Source: Dehalococcoidia bacterium (GTDB taxonomy: Bacteria > Chloroflexota > Dehalococcoidia > DSTF01 > JACRBR01). From it: a DNA stretch of 64,000 bases. Where the stretch lies: the NCBI GenBank assembly GCA_040902535.1, contig JBBDXD010000001.1, forward strand, positions 145,161 through 209,160. The letters run 5' to 3'. Shown one piece after another: positions 888 through 10,708 of the stretch (the first letter of the stretch is position 1; every line of letters begins with the position of its first letter). The position numbers were made by a program, and so were the translations under genes. The notes under the pieces were generated by a model. The model made no database searches and was not told the origin of the DNA. It saw only the letters and a list, made by a program, of their open reading frames with translations.

Positions 888-1054
888 TCCAGTCTGACCA
901 GGCGAACGAGTCCTCGAGGAGCGGCCCGCTCTTGGCTCGGTCCCGAACGTCCCCTGGTTACACGCATCGCGTACGCCCATCGCGCCCGATCACCACATCG
1001 CAGCACGTCGATCGAGTCACGATCCTCGGACGAGGAACGCCGGATGAGGAAATC

Positions 1055-4006
1055 ATGAGCAAGAAGTACGTCTACCTGTTCCACGAAGGCGACAAGGACC
1101 AGAAGGATCTGCTCGGCGGCAAGGGCGCAAACCTCGCCGAGATGACGAATCTCGGACTGCCGGTGCCGCCCGGCTTCACCATCACCACCGAAGCCTGCAA
1201 CGAGTACACCAGGCTCGGCATGCAGTTCCCCGAAGGCCTGATGGACCAGGTCCGCGAGCGCCTCGCTCGGGTCGAAGCGGCGTCCGGCAAGAAGCTCGGC
1301 GATCCGCAGACGCCGCTGCTCGTGTCGGTGCGCTCCGGCGCCAAGTTCTCGATGCCCGGCATGATGGACACCGTCCTCAACCTCGGCCTCAACGAGACGA
1401 CGCTGCTCGGGCTCGTCGACCAGACCGGCGACGAGCGCTTCGCCTTCGACGCCTATCGCCGCTTCATCATGATGTTCTCCGACATCGTGCTCGACCTCGA
1501 ACGCCGCAGCTTTGACCGCATCTTCGACGAAGCCAAGAAATCCGCCGGTGTTGAAGAAGACTCGCACCTCCAGCCCGAAGCGCTGAAGGACGTCGTCCAG
1601 CGCTTCAAGGCGCACGTGAAGCGCGAGACCGGCAACGACTTCCCGGACGAGCCGATGGCCCAGCTCGAGCTGGCGATCCGCGCCGTCTTCAACTCCTGGA
1701 ATAACGAGCGTGCCTTTCGCTACCGCGAGATCGAGAAGATCCCGCACGACCTCGGCACGGCCGTCAACGTCCAGACGATGGTCTTCGGCAACATGGGCGA
1801 CGACTCCGGCACCGGCGTCGCCTTCACACGCGACCCCGGCTCAGGTGAACGCCTGATCTGGGGCGAGTACCTGCTGAACGCGCAGGGCGAAGACGTCGTC
1901 GCGGGCATCCGCACGCCCACGCCGATCGCGCAGCTCGCGCGGGACAATCCGTCCCTGTACAAGCAGTTCGCCGACATCTGCGAGACGCTCGAGAAGCATT
2001 TTCGTGACACGATGGACGTCGAGTTCACGTTCGAGAAGGGACGCCTCTATTTCCTGCAGTGCCGCGTCGGCAAGCGCACGACGCGCGCCGCCGTGAAGAT
2101 CGCCCACGACATGGTGCAAGAAGGGCTGATCGACAAGCGCGAGGCGCTGCAGCGCGTGCAGCCGCAGCGGCTCGACGATCTGCTCCACCCGCACGTCGAC
2201 CCGCGTGTCCAGACCGTGCCGCTCGGCGTGGTGGCGAACGACGTCGCCGCGATCATCGCCGACAAGCCTGCCGTGATCTATTTCGACAACGGCCTGCAGA
2301 CGATGGATCTCGCCGCGTGGGACGCCATGTCGCCGGCGGATCGCGACGGACTGATCGCTCGCGCGAAGTTCATCGATGTCGCGCACGGGCTGCCGGCATC
2401 GCCGGGCGCCGCCGTCGGCCAGGCGACGTTTGATCCTGACACCGCGGCCGAAATCGGCATCGGCGGCCGCGGCGAGCCCGTGATCCTCGTGCGGGAAGAG
2501 ACCTCGCCCGACGACATTCACGGCATGCAGGCCGCACAGGGCATTCTCACCGAGCGCGGCGGCATGAGCAGCCACGCCGCGCTCGTCGCGCGCGGCTTCG
2601 GCAAGCCCTGCGTCTCAGGCTGCGAAGCGATCTCCGTGAATGAGGAGTCGCGCAGCTTCTCGCTCAACGGCGTCACGCTCAACCAGGGCCAGGTGCTGAC
2701 GATCGACGGCTCGGCGGGCGTCGTCCTGCTCGGCATGATCCCGGCAGCCGAAGCCGAGCTGTTCGACGAGCTGGACGAGTTCCTGCGCTGGGCCGACGGG
2801 GCACGGCGCCTCAAGGTACGGGCGAACGCCGACAACCCGCCCGATGCCGCGAAGGCCATCGAACTGGGCGCCGAGGGCATTGGGCTCTGCCGCACCGAGC
2901 ACATGTTCCTCGACAAGGAGCGCCTGTCCGTCGCGCGCGCCATGATCCTGGGCGCGCACCAGGCGAAAATCCTGCAACTCGATGCCGAGTCCATCGAAAA
3001 GGAACTGGAGAACGCCACCGGCGAGAAGAAGCGGCGTCTCGATGAGCGCCTGCATGAGATCCAGGGGCGCATGGAGGGCCCGATGGGCCAGTACCTCGGC
3101 GCGCTTGAGAAGATCTTGCCCATGCAGCAGGGCGACTTCGAGGCGATCTTCCGCGTCATGGCCGGCAAGCCCGTCACCATCCGCCTCATCGATCCGCCGA
3201 TGCACGAGTTCCTGCCCGACCACGACGCGCTGCTCGAAGACGTCACGCGCCTGCGCATCGAGGCGAAGTTCGCAGAACAGATCCAGGAGCTGGGCGAAAA
3301 AGAGGCGCTGCTCGCCAGCGTCAACGCCGTACGCGAGCAGAACCCCATGCTCGGGCTGCGCGGCGTGCGGCTCGGCATCCTCTACCCGGAAATCAACGAG
3401 ATGCAGGTGAAGGCGATCTTCCGCGCCGCGATCAAGCTCTCGCAGGAAGGCGTCGAGGTGTTCCCCGAGATCATGATCCCGCTCGTCGGCTTCGACACGG
3501 AGTTGCGTTACCTGCGCGAACTGCTCGAGACGACGGCGCGCAAGGAGATGGACGCCGCCGGCAAGCAGATCGACTACCAGTTCGGCACGATGATCGAGTT
3601 GCCGCGCGCCGCCGTCACCGCGGGACAGATCGCGGAGACGGCCGAGTTCTTCTCGTTCGGCACCAACGACCTCACGCAGACCGCGCTCGGCTGCTCGCGC
3701 GACGACGCCGAGGGCAAGTTCCTCGCGCGCTACCTCGACATGGGCATCCTCAAGGACAACCCGTTCGAGACGATCGACCAGGTAGGCGTCGGCGCGATCA
3801 TGCGGCAGGCGATCGCCGCCGGACGGCAGACGCGCCCCAACATCAAGCTCGGCATCTGCGGCGAGCACGGCGGCGAGCCCCGTTCGGTCGAATTCTTCCA
3901 CCAGATCGGCCTCGACTACGTGTCATGCTCACCCTTCCGCGTGCCGATCGCCCGCCTCGCCGCCGCGCAGGCAGCATTGGGTGAGGGCGCGGAGCGGGAT
4001 CGGTGA
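1055..4006 (+). CDS. ppdK: pyruvate, phosphate dikinase
   Basis: 983-aa product starting MSKKYVYLFHEGDKDQKDLLGGKGANLAEMTNLGLPVPPGFTITTEAC. It has a PEP-utilising/ATP-grasp N-terminus, the phosphohistidine segment GGMSSHAALVARGFGKPCV and a C-terminal TIM-barrel PEP-binding domain (NDLTQ...CGEHGGEP). The ORF-track start at 932 is upstream in the same frame; ATG 1055 is the likely start. Confidence 0.95.
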   Translation: MSKKYVYLFHEGDKDQKDLLGGKGANLAEMTNLGLPVPPGFTITTEACNEYTRLGMQFPEGLMDQVRERLARVEAASGKKLGDPQTPLLVSVRSGAKFSMPGMMDTVLNLGLNETTLLGLVDQTGDERFAFDAYRRFIMMFSDIVLDLERRSFDRIFDEAKKSAGVEEDSHLQPEALKDVVQRFKAHVKRETGNDFPDEPMAQLELAIRAVFNSWNNERAFRYREIEKIPHDLGTAVNVQTMVFGNMGDDSGTGVAFTRDPGSGERLIWGEYLLNAQGEDVVAGIRTPTPIAQLARDNPSLYKQFADICETLEKHFRDTMDVEFTFEKGRLYFLQCRVGKRTTRAAVKIAHDMVQEGLIDKREALQRVQPQRLDDLLHPHVDPRVQTVPLGVVANDVAAIIADKPAVIYFDNGLQTMDLAAWDAMSPADRDGLIARAKFIDVAHGLPASPGAAVGQATFDPDTAAEIGIGGRGEPVILVREETSPDDIHGMQAAQGILTERGGMSSHAALVARGFGKPCVSGCEAISVNEESRSFSLNGVTLNQGQVLTIDGSAGVVLLGMIPAAEAELFDELDEFLRWADGARRLKVRANADNPPDAAKAIELGAEGIGLCRTEHMFLDKERLSVARAMILGAHQAKILQLDAESIEKELENATGEKKRRLDERLHEIQGRMEGPMGQYLGALEKILPMQQGDFEAIFRVMAGKPVTIRLIDPPMHEFLPDHDALLEDVTRLRIEAKFAEQIQELGEKEALLASVNAVREQNPMLGLRGVRLGILYPEINEMQVKAIFRAAIKLSQEGVEVFPEIMIPLVGFDTELRYLRELLETTARKEMDAAGKQIDYQFGTMIELPRAAVTAGQIAETAEFFSFGTNDLTQTALGCSRDDAEGKFLARYLDMGILKDNPFETIDQVGVGAIMRQAIAAGRQTRPNIKLGICGEHGGEPRSVEFFHQIGLDYVSCSPFRVPIARLAAAQAALGEGAERDR

Positions 4007-4062
4007 GCGATCCGAGCGGAAACCGAGGGATCGACGCAACGAAGGGCGAAGTAGGAATTGAA

Positions 4063-4090
4063 AGTAGGGACGAACCTTCAGGTCCGTCCC
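4063..4090 (+). repeat. REP-like palindromic element, copy 1 (GTAG + imperfect hairpin)
   Basis: AGTAGGGACGAACCTTCAGGTCCGTCCC has a 5' GTAG tetranucleotide followed by the imperfect palindrome GGGACGAACCT/AGGTCCGTCCC. The exact reverse complement recurs at 4589-4616. Confidence 0.65.
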
Positions 4091-4122
4091 CCTCACTGGA
4101 TGTTTCCGACGATGGCCGCGGG

Positions 4123-4629
4123 GTGAGTCGCCGTCGCCCCCGCCTACCGGAATTCGATTATCTCGGGCATCAGGCCTATCACGTCACGGTCGTGACGCAT
4201 CGACGCATGCCAATCCTCAGCGAGAACCTCGCCGAATCCGTATGCACCCGCATCGTCCAGAGCGCCGCAGCGACCAATTTCGATCCATTGGCGTATTGCG
4301 TAATGCCCGATCACTGCCACCTGCTCCTGCAGGGGTGCGCCGACGACTCGAGCCTGCTGAAGTTCATGAAGCTGTTCAAGCAGACAACGAGCTTCATCGC
4401 TCAACGCGACTTTGGTCATCACCTCTGGCAGCAGAGCTTTCACGATCGCGTCCTTCGCAAGGACGACGACGCTCTTCATGTCGCCCGCTATATCATCGAG
4501 AATCCCGTAGCCGCAGGTCTAACGTCCGACTCCAGCACGTGGCCACATACCGGAGGAACGATTGTGGCTCAGTCTCAACGCATCGAGTGGGACGGACCTG
4601 AAGGTTCGTCCCTACTTTTCGAGCCGTGA
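4123..4629 (+). CDS. REP-associated tyrosine transposase (IS200/IS605-like Y1 HUH transposase)
   Basis: RRRPRLPEFDYLGHQAYHVTVVTHRRMPILSE matches the N-terminus of IS200-family TnpA/RAYT. It has the HUH-type motif CVMPDHCHLLLQG and the tyrosine motif ARYIIENPVAAGL. The ORF track starts at 4003, but that frame reads through REP copy 1; GTG at 4123 is the more plausible start. The C-terminus overlaps REP copy 2. Confidence 0.75.
   Translation: MSRRRPRLPEFDYLGHQAYHVTVVTHRRMPILSENLAESVCTRIVQSAAATNFDPLAYCVMPDHCHLLLQGCADDSSLLKFMKLFKQTTSFIAQRDFGHHLWQQSFHDRVLRKDDDALHVARYIIENPVAAGLTSDSSTWPHTGGTIVAQSQRIEWDGPEGSSLLFEP
4589..4616 (-). repeat. REP-like palindromic element, copy 2 (inverted orientation)
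   Basis: GGGACGGACCTGAAGGTTCGTCCCTACT is the exact reverse complement of the 28-mer at 4063-4090. Confidence 0.65.
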
Positions 4630-5417
4630 TGCGGCCTCGGGCTCAGATCACCACCGCCGCCACCACCCTCACCAACGCCACCCACATGATCGCGCTCACG
4701 GGCGCTGGCATGAGCGTCGAGAGCGGCATCCCGCCGTTCCGCGGCGCAGGCGGGCTCTGGACGAAGCACGGCGAGCCACCGATGGACGGCTATCAGCGCT
4801 TCATGGCCGACCCGGCGGCCCACTGGCGGAACATGCTCGCACGCCGCGATAGCGACGACGAGTTCACGCGCGCCCTCAACGCTGCGAAGCCCAACGCCGG
4901 GCACCTGGCGATGGCCGAACTCGAACGCATGGGCGTCCTCAAGCACACGATCTGCCAGAACATCGATAACCTGCACTTCGAAGCCGGCAGCATGTCCGTC
5001 ACCGAGATCCACGGCAACCGCACGAAGCTGCGTTGCGTAGAGTGCACCGCGCGGTGGCCGTGGGCCGAGTTCACGATGACGGACATCCCGCCCGCGTGCC
5101 CGCACTGTGGCGGAATGGTGAAGTCCGACACGGTCATGTTCGGCGAACCGATCCCGCGCCAATTTCTCGCTGAGTGCCAGGCGCAGGCCGAGCGCGCTGA
5201 CTGCATCATGATCGTTGGCACGTCCGCGAGCGTCACGCCCGCCGCGTGGTTCCCGGAGATCGTCCTCGAACGCGGCGGCACGCTGATCGAGATCAACACG
5301 GAGCCGACGCCGTTCTCGTCCCATTGCGCGGCGTCGATACGGGCGCCCTCGGGCGAAGCCTTGCCGCTGATCGTCGACGAGATTCACCGGATGCAACGGC
5401 TGGAACCTGGAGACTAG
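4629..5417 (+). CDS. cobB: NAD-dependent protein deacylase (Sir2/CobB family sirtuin)
   Basis: IALTGAGMSVESGIPPFRGAGGLW is the sirtuin NAD-binding motif, followed by a CxxC...CxxC zinc ribbon (CVECTARW...CPHCGG) and GTSASVTPAAWFP. The start is uncertain (GTG 4626, ATG 4629, or the internal Met before IALTG). Confidence 0.85.
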   Translation: MRPRAQITTAATTLTNATHMIALTGAGMSVESGIPPFRGAGGLWTKHGEPPMDGYQRFMADPAAHWRNMLARRDSDDEFTRALNAAKPNAGHLAMAELERMGVLKHTICQNIDNLHFEAGSMSVTEIHGNRTKLRCVECTARWPWAEFTMTDIPPACPHCGGMVKSDTVMFGEPIPRQFLAECQAQAERADCIMIVGTSASVTPAAWFPEIVLERGGTLIEINTEPTPFSSHCAASIRAPSGEALPLIVDEIHRMQRLEPGD

Positions 5418-5473
5418 AAGTTGGAGCGCCGCGCCGTCTGTCGGCAGGCGCGGCGGCCGTGTAATCTCTGCCC

Positions 5474-6871
5474 ATGATCGCAGACCAATTGGCCCTCGCG
5501 TCGATCGAGACCGTCGCAGAGAAGATCGCCGCGAAGGAAATCAGCCCGGTCGAGCTGACGCAGGCGATGCTCGAACGCATCGAGCGGCTGAACCCTCAGC
5601 TCAACGCGTACATGACGGTCACCGCCGACATCGCGCTCGAACAAGCACGCGCCGCGGAACGCGAGATCGTCGCCGGCAATCATCGCGGCCTGCTGCACGG
5701 CGTGCCCATCGCGCACAAGGACCTCTACGCGACGAAAGGCGTGCGCACCACCGCCGGCTCGAAGATCCTGACCGACTGGATCCCCGACCATGAGGCCACT
5801 GTCGTGACAAAGCTGCGCGACGCCGGCGCGGTGATGCTCGGCAAGCTTGGCATGCACGAGTGGGCGTTCGGCACGACGTCCGCCAACGTGCACTTTGGCT
5901 ACGTGTGCAATCCCTGGAGGGTTGACTGCGTGCCGGGAGGCTCGTCCGGCGGCTCAGGAGCGGCGGTCGCCGCCGGTCTTGCGTTCGCGGCGCTCGGCAG
6001 CGACACCGGCGGCAGCATCCGCATTCCGGCGTCCTTCTGCGGCGTCGTCGGCCTCATGCCGACGTACGGACGCGCGAGCCTGCATGGCGCCGTCCCTCTC
6101 TCACGGTCGCTCGACCATCCCGGCCCGCTTACGCGCACGGTCCGCGATGCGGCCATCGTCACGCAGGCGATCAGCGGCCACGACCCGCTTGACCCTGCCA
6201 CCGAGTTGCGCCCGGTCGACGACATGCTCGCGGACGCCGAGCAAGGACCAGAGGGCTTGCGCATCGGCGTGCCGAAGCAACTGTTCTGGGACAATCTGGA
6301 GCCCGAAGTCGAGCGCCTCGTGCGCAAAGCCATCGCCGACCTGGCCGCTGCCGGCGCTGACGTCCAGGAGGTCGATTGGCCCGAGGCATCCGTGTACTCA
6401 TCCGCGGTCGGGCCGATCATCCTCGCGGAGGCGGCGGCCTACCACGCGCAGTACCTGCCAGCGCGACGCGCCGAGTACAGCGATGTTGTCGGCGGCATGC
6501 TCGAAGCCGGCGCCCAGATTAAGGCGACGCAATACATCGACGCGATGCGCATCATGGAACGCGCACGCAGCGGCGAAGCCGACCGCGCGCTCGATGACGT
6601 CGACGTGCTGATGACGCCGCAGGTGCAGCAGGTCGCACCGAAAATGGCGGACGTCCTCACAGACCGCGACGTGGTCCGGCGCACCGCGCTCACGAGCCTC
6701 ATCGACCTCACCGGCCAGCCGGCCATGTCGGTGCCATGCGGCGTTTCCAGCCAGGCCATGCCCGTCGGACTGCAGATCATCGGCCGCCGCTGGGATGAAG
6801 CCGCGGTCGTACGCGCCGGCCGCGCGTACGAGATGGTGCGCGGCCCCTTCCCCGCCCCGCCGATCTCCTGA
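5474..6871 (+). CDS. amidase-signature family amidase (GatA-like)
   Basis: Carries the amidase signature GGSSGGSGAAVAAGLAFAALGSDTGGSIRIPASFCGVVGLMPTYGR and the Ser-cisSer-Lys context (HGVPIAHKDLYATKG). Confidence 0.85.
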   Translation: MIADQLALASIETVAEKIAAKEISPVELTQAMLERIERLNPQLNAYMTVTADIALEQARAAEREIVAGNHRGLLHGVPIAHKDLYATKGVRTTAGSKILTDWIPDHEATVVTKLRDAGAVMLGKLGMHEWAFGTTSANVHFGYVCNPWRVDCVPGGSSGGSGAAVAAGLAFAALGSDTGGSIRIPASFCGVVGLMPTYGRASLHGAVPLSRSLDHPGPLTRTVRDAAIVTQAISGHDPLDPATELRPVDDMLADAEQGPEGLRIGVPKQLFWDNLEPEVERLVRKAIADLAAAGADVQEVDWPEASVYSSAVGPIILAEAAAYHAQYLPARRAEYSDVVGGMLEAGAQIKATQYIDAMRIMERARSGEADRALDDVDVLMTPQVQQVAPKMADVLTDRDVVRRTALTSLIDLTGQPAMSVPCGVSSQAMPVGLQIIGRRWDEAAVVRAGRAYEMVRGPFPAPPIS

Positions 6872-8504: not shown

Positions 8505-10586
8505 TCAGCGCCGCCCCCGCACGGGCGCCCGCCGCTGGTATCGTCCCGGCCGCGGACGTGGCTTCGCTCCGAGCGACCCGTACGACGATTGCGCAAACTC
8601 GTGCAGCGCCGATTCGTCGTCGAGCATGGCCTTCCGCAGTTCGATGATCTGGTCGCGCACCAACGCCGCACGCTCGAACTCGAGCGACTTCGCCGCGGTC
8701 TTCATCTGCGATTCCAGATCCTTGACCATGCGCGCCATCTCGTCCTTCGGCATGGACTTGACGGTGTACTCCGCCTTCTCCTCGGCGACCTTCTTGATCT
8801 GGTCGGTGATGTCGCGGATCGCCTTCGTGATACCCTCCGGCGAAATGCCGCGCTCTTCGTTGTGCGAACGCTGGATCGCGCGACGGCGCTCTGTCTCGCT
8901 GATCGCGAACTTCATCGAGGCGGTCATGTTGTCGGCGTACATGATCACAGTGCCCTCGACGTGGCGTGACGCGCGACCGATCGTCTGCACCAGCGATCCG
9001 CCTGACCGGAGATAGCCCTCCTTGTCGGCGTCGATGATGCAGACGAGGCTCACTTCCGGCAAATCCAGACCTTCCCGCAACAGGTTGATCCCCACGACCA
9101 CGTCGTACACGCCGAGGCGCAGGTCGCGGAGGATCTCCACGCGTTCGAGCGTGTCGATCTCGCTGTGCAGGTAATGCGTGCGGACGCCCATCTCCTGGAG
9201 ATAGTCGGCCAGATCCTCCGCCATGCGCTTCGTCAGCGTCGTGACAAGCACGCGCTGTTGCTTCTCGATGCGCTTCCTCACCTCATCGAGCAGATCGTCG
9301 ATCTGCCCGCGCGTCGGCTTCACCTGGATCACCGGATCGAGCAGACCCGTCGGACGAATCACCTGCTCGACGACCTGGCTGCTATTGCCGAGTTCGTACG
9401 GCCCCGGCGTCGCCGAGACGAACACCACCTGGTTGAGGTGGTTCTCTAACTCCTCAAAGTTCAGCGGCCGGTTGTCGAGCGCCGACGGCAGCCGGAACCC
9501 GAAGTCGACGAGCGTCTGCTTCCGCGCGTAGTCGCCGTGGAACATGCCCCGCGCCTGCGGAATCGCGATGTGCGACTCGTCCACGAACATCAGGAAGTCG
9601 TCCGGGAAGTAATCGAGCAGTGTCCACGGCGTGCTCCCCGCGGCGCGTCGCGCCAAATGCCGGCTGTAGTTCTCGATACCGGAGCAGTAGCCCGCCTCGC
9701 GCATCGTCTCCAGGTCGTAGTTCGTGCGCTCTTCGAGCCTCGCCGCCTCCAGGACCTTGCCCTGACCGCGCAGATCCTGCAGCCGCTCACGTAGCTCGAG
9801 CTCGATGTCCTGGATCGCTTCGTCGAGCTTGTCCTTCGACGTCACGAAGTGCTTCGCCGGATAGATATCGATCTCCTCCCGGTCGGCGAGCAGTTCGCCC
9901 GTCAGCGGGTCGATCTCGATGATCCGCTCCACTTCGTCGCCGAAGAAGTCGATGCGTACCGCCAGCTCTTCGTACGAGGGCTGGATCGTGATGCTGTCGC
10001 CGCGCAGCCGGAACTTCCCGCGCACCAGGTTCATGTCGTTGCGCTCGTACTGCATGTCGACGAACCGCCGCATGATGCGAGAACGGTCGAACTTCTCACC
10101 TTTGCGCAGCTTGACGACGAAGCTCTGGTACTCCTCCGGCTCGCCGAGACCGTAGATGCACGACACCGACGCCACGATAAGCACGTCGCGCCGCTCAAAG
10201 AGCGCACGCGTCGCCGCATGCCGCAGCTTGTCGATCTCCTGGTTGATATCGGCGTCCTTGGCGATGTAGGTGTCGGTGCGCGGTATGTACGCCTCTGGCT
10301 GGTAATAGTCGTAGTACGACACGAAATACTCGACGGCGTTCTCCGGGAAGTGCTCCTTGAACTCCGAGCAGAGCTGCGCCGCCAGCGTCCGGTTCGGCGC
10401 CAGCACGAGCGTCGGGCGCTGATACTGCGCTACGATGTTTGCCATGGTGAACGTCTTGCCCGAGCCCGTGACACCCATGAGCGTCTGGGAGCGGTCGCCC
10501 CGCCCCAGGCCGGACACGAGCTGTTCGATGGCCTGCGGCTGGTCGCCGGTGGGCAGGAAGTCGGATACGAGTTTGAAGTCAGGCAT
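8505..10586 (-). CDS. uvrB: excinuclease ABC subunit B
   Basis: [27 protein letters not shown]...[15 protein letters not shown], helicase motifs, beta-hairpin region and C-terminal UVR domain ([17 protein letters not shown]). The track ORF extends 12 codons upstream; ATG at 10586 fits UvrB N-termini. Confidence 0.95.
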
Positions 10587-10708
10587 GGACGGTCCCGGAA
10601 ATCTCAGGCGGAATCTGATCAAGTCTAACAGAGCACCGACGAGGCCCGGCTGTGCGTCCGGGCCTCATCTTGTCGCGCTACTGTCAGCGTGATGTCAGCA
10701 GTCGACCG

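Follow-up and report, generated by a model that had tools for sequence, protein, structure and literature searches.

A gene lying between ppdK and a sirtuin gene in a Dehalococcoidia bacterium (phylum Chloroflexota) most probably encodes a REP-associated tyrosine transposase (RAYT) which, together with one inward-pointing repetitive extragenic palindromic sequence (REP) on either side, makes up a minimal REPtron; the probability assigned to this reading is about 0.85. The DNA analysed, hereafter the window, is a stretch of 64 kb (assembly GCA_040902535.1, contig JBBDXD010000001.1, positions 145,161 to 209,160), and the evidence on the source genome comes from this window. RAYTs are domesticated single-stranded DNA (ssDNA) transposases that are thought to spread REPs, and the unit described here is a typical case of something already known from bacteria, a RAYT between inverted REPs. 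The case is carried by the identity of the gene, its intact catalytic and recognition residues, the inverted hairpins at its ends, the dispersal of the REP in related genomes, the conservation of an orthologous locus and the architecture of the clade. A REPtron-like unit had been proposed at this site from the letters alone (the sequence-only reading), and a curated hidden Markov model, the closest sequence match of known structure, the predicted fold and the dispersed, extragenic position of the repeat in other genomes all agree with that proposal.

Two inverted GTAG hairpins bracket the gene

The flanking elements are exact copies of one 28-mer, AGTAGGGACGAACCTTCAGGTCCGTCCC, the second standing as the reverse complement of the first (Table 1), and they lie 498 nt apart with the RAYT gene between them. 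Each has a GTAG head, a 10-bp stem (GGGACGAACC / GGTCCGTCCC) with one A.C mismatch and a TTCA loop; the inverted pair and the one-mismatch palindromes headed by GTAG are both as the sequence-only reading had described them. The inverted repeat spans 34 nt and is 97% complementary. When up to three mismatches are allowed, the two flanking copies are the sole matches to the 28-mer in the window, with 0 expected from 100 dinucleotide-preserving shuffles. As ssDNA each REP is predicted to fold with -7 to -8 kcal/mol (z = -2.4 to -3.4), and perfectly paired variants from elsewhere reach -11 to -12 kcal/mol.

The pair differs from two related kinds of repeat. TIRtrons, with their TIRYTs, have long terminal inverted repeats unrelated to GTAG REPs, whereas the flanks here are GTAG hairpins that belong to a dispersed family; REPINs are inverted REPs with a short spacer that replicate as a unit, a description that does not fit the window pair. 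A known RNA family was considered and rejected, an Rfam scan of 3800-4900 having returned just two snoRNA matches, both sub-threshold and within the gene, and none at the REPs. A literature search for the motif GTAGGGACG yielded unrelated primer or oligonucleotide matches alone.

The enclosed gene encodes a RAYT

The open reading frame (ORF) called between ppdK and the sirtuin gene, 4003-4629, is 208 aa long and matches Pfam Y1_Tnp (1.1e-12). It passes NF047646, the NCBI curated RAYT equivalog model, with 97.7 bits against a cutoff of 80, and fails the IS200/IS605 model NF033573 with 36.9 bits against a cutoff of 55, so that the comparison of RAYT with IS200 profiles suggested alongside the initial proposal comes out for RAYT. 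The RAYT model is also the best-scoring one for 17/17 close relatives in the alignment. Among sequences in the PDB the best match is 4ER8, the Escherichia coli TnpA-REP with its REP hairpin (E = 1.7e-6), with ISDra2 TnpA at ~1e-3. The AlphaFold (AF2) model of the protein is confident, with a predicted local distance difference test score (pLDDT) above 90 over residues 51-190 of the 208-aa ORF, and its top Foldseek match is again 4ER8 (E = 2.1e-10), which aligns over 160 columns as against ~120 for the IS608, ISDra2 and IS200 transposases.

The residues on which such an enzyme depends are intact. In the numbering of the 208-aa ORF, the HUH motif is H104/H106 (nt 4312-4320) and the catalytic tyrosine Tyr163 (nt 4489-4491); these are invariant in the alignments and bear out the Y1, HUH and tyrosine hallmarks that had been recognised in the ORF by eye. 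The GTAG guide is read by W94, Q95, E100 and R104 in E. coli TnpA-REP (PMC6006769). The equivalent residues of the window protein, W142, Q143, D148 and R152, are located in LWQQSFHDRVLR, and in the alignment with 4ER8 WQPRFWEHAIR pairs with WQQSFHDRVLR. Among the aligned relatives W142 and D148 are invariant, and Q143 and R152 reach a conservation of 90% or more; replacement of Glu by Asp at this recognition position is known from one subclass (PMC6006769). The RAYT is a single-copy gene within the window, where no tnpB was found. At E<=1e-3 its family has 8,479 cluster representatives, a number that falls to 1,324 at E<=1e-10 and to 33 at E<=1e-30; the nearest representative other than its own is 52% identical.

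The start and the end of the RAYT gene

The gene probably spans 4123-4629, starting at the GTG that the sequence-only reading had already preferred and encoding 168 aa, because four features of sequence and model converge on this start. Homologues begin one or two residues ahead of a conserved RRRPRLPxFDY, which corresponds to GTG 4123. The preceding stretch, 4003-4122, lacks coding periodicity, its GC content at third codon positions (GC3) being 0.55 compared with 0.70 in the RAYT core and 0.86-0.89 in the neighbouring genes; its product is modelled as disordered (residues 1-50 low, pLDDT about 44-56); and it is conserved among relatives in neither sequence, frame nor length. In a diverged orthologous locus, L002, the TAG of GTAG stands in frame upstream of the RAYT. 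A translated N-terminal extension, with 30-45 extra residues called in several relatives, was considered and rejected, since these extensions are unrelated, have no coding periodicity and are modelled as disordered; the RDE... peptides that recur in relatives are REPs read through an open frame.

At the other end the last 13 codons come from the 3' REP, reading ...DGPEGSSL... with the tail ...EWDGPEGSSLLFEP, and this REP-encoded tail is predicted to be disordered (pLDDT <50). The ORF runs through the 3' REP because there is no earlier stop, and its C-terminus is thus best taken, from sequence and model, as overlapping the REP and not as mis-annotated. The suggestion that both termini of the 208-aa ORF derive from REPs therefore stands for the N-terminal part, where 4003-4122 is non-coding, and stands at the C-terminus as an overlap; it fails there as an artefact. 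REPs that overlap the 5' or 3' ends of tyrosine-transposase genes have been recorded before (Di Nocera et al. 2013, PMC3733652).

A REP with a GGGAC foot that follows a RAYT is always read in the same frame, as xDG[PA]x[GA][SA]SL, with a spacer of 8 to 15 residues between the GG motif and the REP. This same-frame read-through is seen in the window (4585-4629), in L002 (537-591), in L124 (7560-7660, minus strand), in L164 (1139-1197) and in P0014, P0015, P0026, P0028 and P0034. The loop of the REP supplies the stop codon of the RAYT (TGA/TAA) in 17/61 clade loci. Such frame-conserved read-through could reflect selection or ascertainment bias.

The REP is dispersed in other genomes

One genome per species, 596 Gb in total, was scanned with GTAGGGACGNACCNNNNGGTNCGTCC, and at least 120 blocks of 8 kb were recovered. 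Among the matches listed there are at least 126 copies (126-127) in 48 assemblies, mostly metagenome-assembled genomes (MAGs) of Chloroflexota and Acidobacteriota, where chance would give ~1 match for 20 fixed bases in 596 Gb at uniform base composition. Chloroflexota MAGs hold most of the copies (at least 14, 11, 9, 8, 7, 7 and 6 per MAG), and the exact variant of the window, with its A.C mismatch and TTCA loop, is dominant in several of them, at no fewer than 4-6 dispersed copies each. In the Acidobacteriota both TTCA types and a CATT-loop subtype occur, the latter on contigs of 0.4-1.8 Mb, and the Stahlbacteria/WOR-3 have few copies, with an orthologous site in three MAGs, again among the matches listed. 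The loops of lone matches in Nitrospira, Kitasatospora, Bacteroides and Pseudoflavonifractor are atypical; these matches may be due to chance and were excluded from the taxonomic spread.

The flanks of the dispersed copies are unrelated to each other, from which it follows that the repeat unit is the hairpin itself. In high-GC loci 87/105 copies are wholly extragenic, where gene calls by GC3 periodicity make 73% of bases coding. Singletons account for 69 copies, while 42/127 are accompanied within 120 nt by an inverted GTAG hairpin and form REPIN-like doublets; the mid-stem position is mismatched in 76/126 copies. A clear RAYT relative is present in 1/120 blocks (L124) among the matches listed, and in the other 119 the 26-nt hairpin occurs without one. 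These observations support a true dispersed GTAG-REP family over a private terminal repeat. The REP may also be dispersed in the genome of the window, which is not among the matches listed.

Several features of the dispersed copies are worth recording in their own right. Loops in Chloroflexota are mostly TTCA/TTTA, and the foot and inner stem, GTAGGGACG-N-ACC...GGT-N-CGTCC, are common to at least three phyla (loci L005-L124); REP sequences are usually taken as lineage-specific. The inverted partner 30-60 nt away is often a second subtype with the same foot, GTAGGGACG-A-AGC-TTTC-GCT-C-CGTCC (L011 291-373, L015, L019, L020 and others), and these paired ACC..GGT and AGC..GCT stems resemble the Y/Z REP pairs in the bacterial interspersed mosaic elements (BIMEs) of E. 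coli. On L124 (7400-7660, minus strand) a tandem duplication of ~115 nt lies 3' of the RAYT and consists of the REP, the ribosome-binding region and the first ~15 codons of trpB, so that a REP separates a truncated trpB start from a complete one.

The arrangement is conserved in a diverged lineage and across the clade

L002, which comes from a different sample, carries a RAYT whose protein is 51% identical to that of the window, directly 5' of a sirtuin fragment with 85% protein identity. Third codon positions of the sirtuin are 63% identical, corresponding to ~37% synonymous-site divergence. Both L002 REPs are nevertheless 100% identical to those of the window, standing as islands of 27-28 nt within diverged, indel-rich flanks, and the neutral probability of 54 identical sites over the two REPs is ~1e-11. 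The perfect preservation of the REPs where neutral sites have diverged points to ongoing constraint or homogenisation. The RAYT occupies the same site, 5' of the sirtuin gene, in both lineages, as would be expected if it were inherited vertically.

A metagenome scan returned at least 344 relatives of the RAYT, and 80 loci were examined. GTAG/GTGG hairpins lie within 350 nt of the gene in 69/80 relatives, and where both flanks are available the hairpins point inward, upstream on the plus and downstream on the minus strand, in 43/62 loci. Such hairpins are concentrated around the gene, at 2.9 per kb in its vicinity as opposed to 0.21 per kb at greater distance. The loop is TTCA or TTTA in 181/244 hairpins, while stems are lineage-specific; L154 and L164 carry the REP of the window with a compensatory G:C to A:T change. 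Of the loci fetched, L115 alone has DNA similarity to ppdK; it was considered as an empty site and set aside as uninformative, as its PpdK is 48% identical and no sirtuin gene lies downstream.

Organisation of the locus

The neighbours named in the sequence-only reading, ppdK and a sirtuin gene, are confirmed by Pfam matches, while its estimate of ~69% GC was too high, the window measuring 66.0%. The 5' REP lies 56 nt beyond the ppdK stop and 32 nt ahead of the RAYT start, and the TGA stop of the RAYT overlaps the ATG of the sirtuin gene at 4629, a start that is also found in the gene calls of two further contigs, L001 and L205.

Table 1. Features of the REPtron locus in window coordinates
Feature	Position	Strand	Remarks
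ppdK (pyruvate phosphate dikinase)	932..4006	+	Pfam PPDK_N, PEP-utilizers, PEP-utilizers_C; start codon uncertain
ppdK-RAYT spacer, most likely non-coding	4007-4122 (116 nt; upstream ORF part 4003..4122)	+	holds the 5' REP
5' REP	4063..4090	+	exact 28-mer; inverted-repeat arm 4061-4094
RAYT (TnpA-REP) gene	4123..4629	+	probable start GTG 4123; 168 aa plus stop
3' REP	4589..4616	-	exact reverse complement of the 5' REP; arm 4585-4618; within the 3' end of the RAYT ORF
Sir2-family deacylase gene	4629..5417 (alternative start 4626)	+	Pfam SIR2, 2.2e-41

The identical unit of gene plus REPs occurs in L001, a Logan contig of 901 bp (100% identical), and in L205, the 7,985-bp NCBI MAG contig JBBDPD010000030.1 (GCA_040876665.1), which is 99.95% identical over 7,979 nt; both are from the same population and fall within the span of the window. 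The NCBI annotation of L205 leaves the RAYT uncalled and has a 111-aa antisense ORF in its place (L205 1243-1578, minus strand, equal to window 4144-4479, minus strand), which is without a Pfam match. A uvrB gene lies ~4 kb from the RAYT in the window (8505-10622, minus strand) and ~3 kb from P0002, a 46%-identical RAYT on a JGI contig, which is probably coincidence because the intervening genes differ.

Alternative explanations

Several observations weigh against the interpretation as a minimal REPtron. No third REP occurs in the 64-kb window, either with up to six edits or in a generic search for GTAG plus a hairpin. By the strict pattern, REP counts per MAG are low (at least 5-14), far below those of E. 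coli or Pseudomonas. The RAYT is atypical in composition, with 58.7% GC and a GC3 of 0.70 compared with 66-68% and 0.86-0.89 in its neighbours, and it diverges much faster than the adjacent sirtuin (51% vs 85% identity), which fits a housekeeping-like domesticated gene less well. Finally, the L002 RAYT has no canonical start codon at its conserved N-terminus. Composition was compared between window 4123-4626 and both 932-4003 and 4629-6868, and between L002 121-588 and 593-910; the RAYT is atypical in both lineages, at 57-59% GC and a GC3 of 0.64-0.70.

The first two points bear on the best-placed rival, an orphan or quiescent REPtron that has kept the gene and its two REPs in a genome without dispersed REPs, the family having never expanded or having become extinct. 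The inverted pair would then act locally, for instance as RAYT binding sites or as transcript-insulating hairpins. The ~63 kb of the window that lack other copies and the low copy numbers in related MAGs would suit this explanation, as would the terminator-like character on the plus strand of the right REP followed by TACTTTTCGA. However, REP density elsewhere is about one copy per several hundred kb, so that finding none in 64 kb is expected and uninformative; the MAGs with the identical variant do carry dispersed copies; and the terminator-like tail is not conserved in L002. An orphan unit is accordingly judged unlikely.

Both REPs are in fact terminator-like in the outward direction (window 4066-4091, minus strand, and 4589-4622, plus strand), each being followed by a T-rich tail, CTACTTT...; 2 terminator-like sites stand against 0.5 expected, and the plus-strand site sits just ahead of the sirtuin start. 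Intrinsic termination was not adopted as a function of the REPs, the T-rich tail being absent in L002.

It is much less probable that the unit is a decaying remnant, with a RAYT pseudogene and inactive, relic REPs. Such decay would account for the fast evolution and atypical GC of the gene, for the antisense ORF that NCBI calls in place of the RAYT in the sister MAG, and for an L002 orthologue that, without a canonical in-frame start before GTG 205, would lose the conserved N-terminal motif. Against it, the window ORF is intact: it starts at the conserved point, retains every catalytic and recognition residue and has a confidently predicted fold. Coding periodicity is present (GC2 0.43, GC3 0.70), and the REPs are perfectly kept where neutral sites have diverged. 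In L002 there is no in-frame ATG, GTG or TTG between the stop at 28-30 and GTG 205, and RRRPRLPDFDY is encoded at 121-153; this RAYT may use a non-canonical start or may be a decaying copy.

An insertion sequence of the IS200/IS605 type, with the 28-mers as terminal repeats of a unit that transposes as a whole, would explain the Y1_Tnp fold, the weak IS200-model match and a unit of lower GC set tightly between two genes, and yet it is hardly tenable: the protein falls below the IS200 cutoff and above that for RAYTs, the ends are symmetric and exact reverse complements whereas IS200/IS605 elements have two unlike subterminal hairpins that face the same way and no terminal inverted repeats, the 26-nt hairpin is dispersed without a clear relative of the gene in 119/120 blocks among the matches listed, the gene holds the same site 5' of the sirtuin in L002 at ~37% synonymous-site divergence, and the window has neither a second copy of the unit nor tnpB.

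Proposed mechanism

How a minimal REPtron of this kind would work can be modelled on the mechanism of TnpA-REP in E. coli (PMC6006769), and by that analogy the RAYT would be enzymatically active on its REP. The protein, as a monomeric HUH/Y1 ssDNA endonuclease-ligase, would bind the REP hairpin when it is extruded in ssDNA, for example at a replication fork, and would read the 5' GTAG head through the conserved Trp, Gln, Asp and Arg. The strand would then be cut and rejoined by means of an HUH-bound metal and the catalytic tyrosine. The expected outcome is that REP copies spread and are maintained in extragenic DNA, singly or as inverted doublets, while the RAYT gene itself would stay in place and be inherited vertically.

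A bolder version, which is thought improbable, would treat the REP with the GTAG-GGACG foot and the RAYT as one recognition module, which would have passed between at least three phyla (Chloroflexota, Acidobacteriota, Stahlbacteria/WOR-3) or else stayed near-invariant in them; for this lineage it would also make the 3' REP a translated, frame-locked part of the RAYT, with the tail xDG[PA]x[GA][SA]SL kept despite indels in the spacer. If this were true, the end of the gene would double as the DNA substrate of the enzyme, and RAYT expression or stability could be coupled to REP processing.

Significance and comparison with known systems

To our knowledge, REP/RAYT studies have dealt almost entirely with Proteobacteria, and the locus adds a documented REP/RAYT system for uncultured Chloroflexota and Acidobacteriota, with the consensus GTAGGGACG-N-ACC-TT[C/T]A-GGT-N-CGTCC. 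For annotation, the 208-aa call should shrink to 168 aa from the probable start at GTG 4123. Identical REPs beside a 51%-identical enzyme, and the same REP in several phyla, are useful for the study of RAYT-REP co-evolution and of possible horizontal spread. The finding leaves the current understanding of REP/RAYT function unchanged.

The suggestion of an undescribed RAYT group, made in the sequence-only reading, is not supported by the sequence comparisons: an existing RAYT model is passed, the clade is large (1,324 representatives at E<=1e-10, and 344 or more relatives in metagenomes), and the REP type, with its GTAG head, G-C foot and long canonical hairpin, has been described (PMC6006769, PMC3733652). 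REPtrons, Chloroflexi GTAG REPs, low-copy REP groups, patchy cross-phylum subclasses and REP-overlapped RAYT ends have all been published (PMC6006769, PMC3733652, PMC5581495), which leaves as mildly unusual points a REP foot that is identical in several phyla and a 3' REP that is read through in a conserved frame.

With the IS200/IS605 TnpA proteins, such as those of IS608 and ISDra2, the window protein shares the HUH/Y1 catalytic core and the recognition of ssDNA hairpins via a short guide sequence. It differs from them in an extra C-terminal region typical of RAYTs, in its symmetric inverted flanks and in a hairpin that is dispersed without the gene. Within the phylum, GTAG REP families are known from Thermomicrobium roseum (GTAG-23) and Chloroflexus aggregans (Di Nocera et al. 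2013, PMC3733652), and the REPs described here are likewise GTAG-tagged stem-loops; GGGACG/CGTCCC is absent from the text and supplements of that paper, whose consensus sequences stand in figures alone.

Also comparable are subclasses 2.4, 2.7 and 2.8 of TnpAY1 class 2, which have canonical long GT[AG]G REPs, subclass 2.4 being group 4 of Bertels 2017 (Quentin et al. 2018, PMC6006769). By their published description these are REPtron-like, with a GTAG head, a G-C foot and a patchy distribution across phyla, and they share with the window a conserved motif upstream of the core (RRRPRLPxFDY here) and low-copy flanking repeats; about 14 occurrences of the 16-mer are given for Bertels group 4 (PMC5581495). 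The HUH-to-Tyr spacing is 57 aa here compared with a median of 88 in subclass 2.4, and no REP lies between the HUH and Tyr motifs.

The fullest comparison is with the REPtron of E. coli K-12 (tnpA-REP / yafM with its REPs and BIMEs; structure 4ER8). Identity between the proteins is ~22%, Asp replaces Glu100 of E. coli and the host belongs to the Chloroflexota. Where E. coli has several REPINs, a single REP stands on each side here, the 3' one within the ORF, and related MAGs have at least 5-14 REPs each compared with hundreds in E. coli. Nevertheless, both proteins are HUH/Y1 enzymes of ~165 aa with the same fold, predicted in the case of the window, and the recognition Trp, Gln and Arg are kept. 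Both systems have a GTAG head on an imperfect hairpin with a stem mismatch and inverted REPs that bracket the gene, and elsewhere in the genomes that carry them the REPs are extragenic, occur singly or as inverted doublets and fall into two stem subtypes, as do Y and Z in E. coli.

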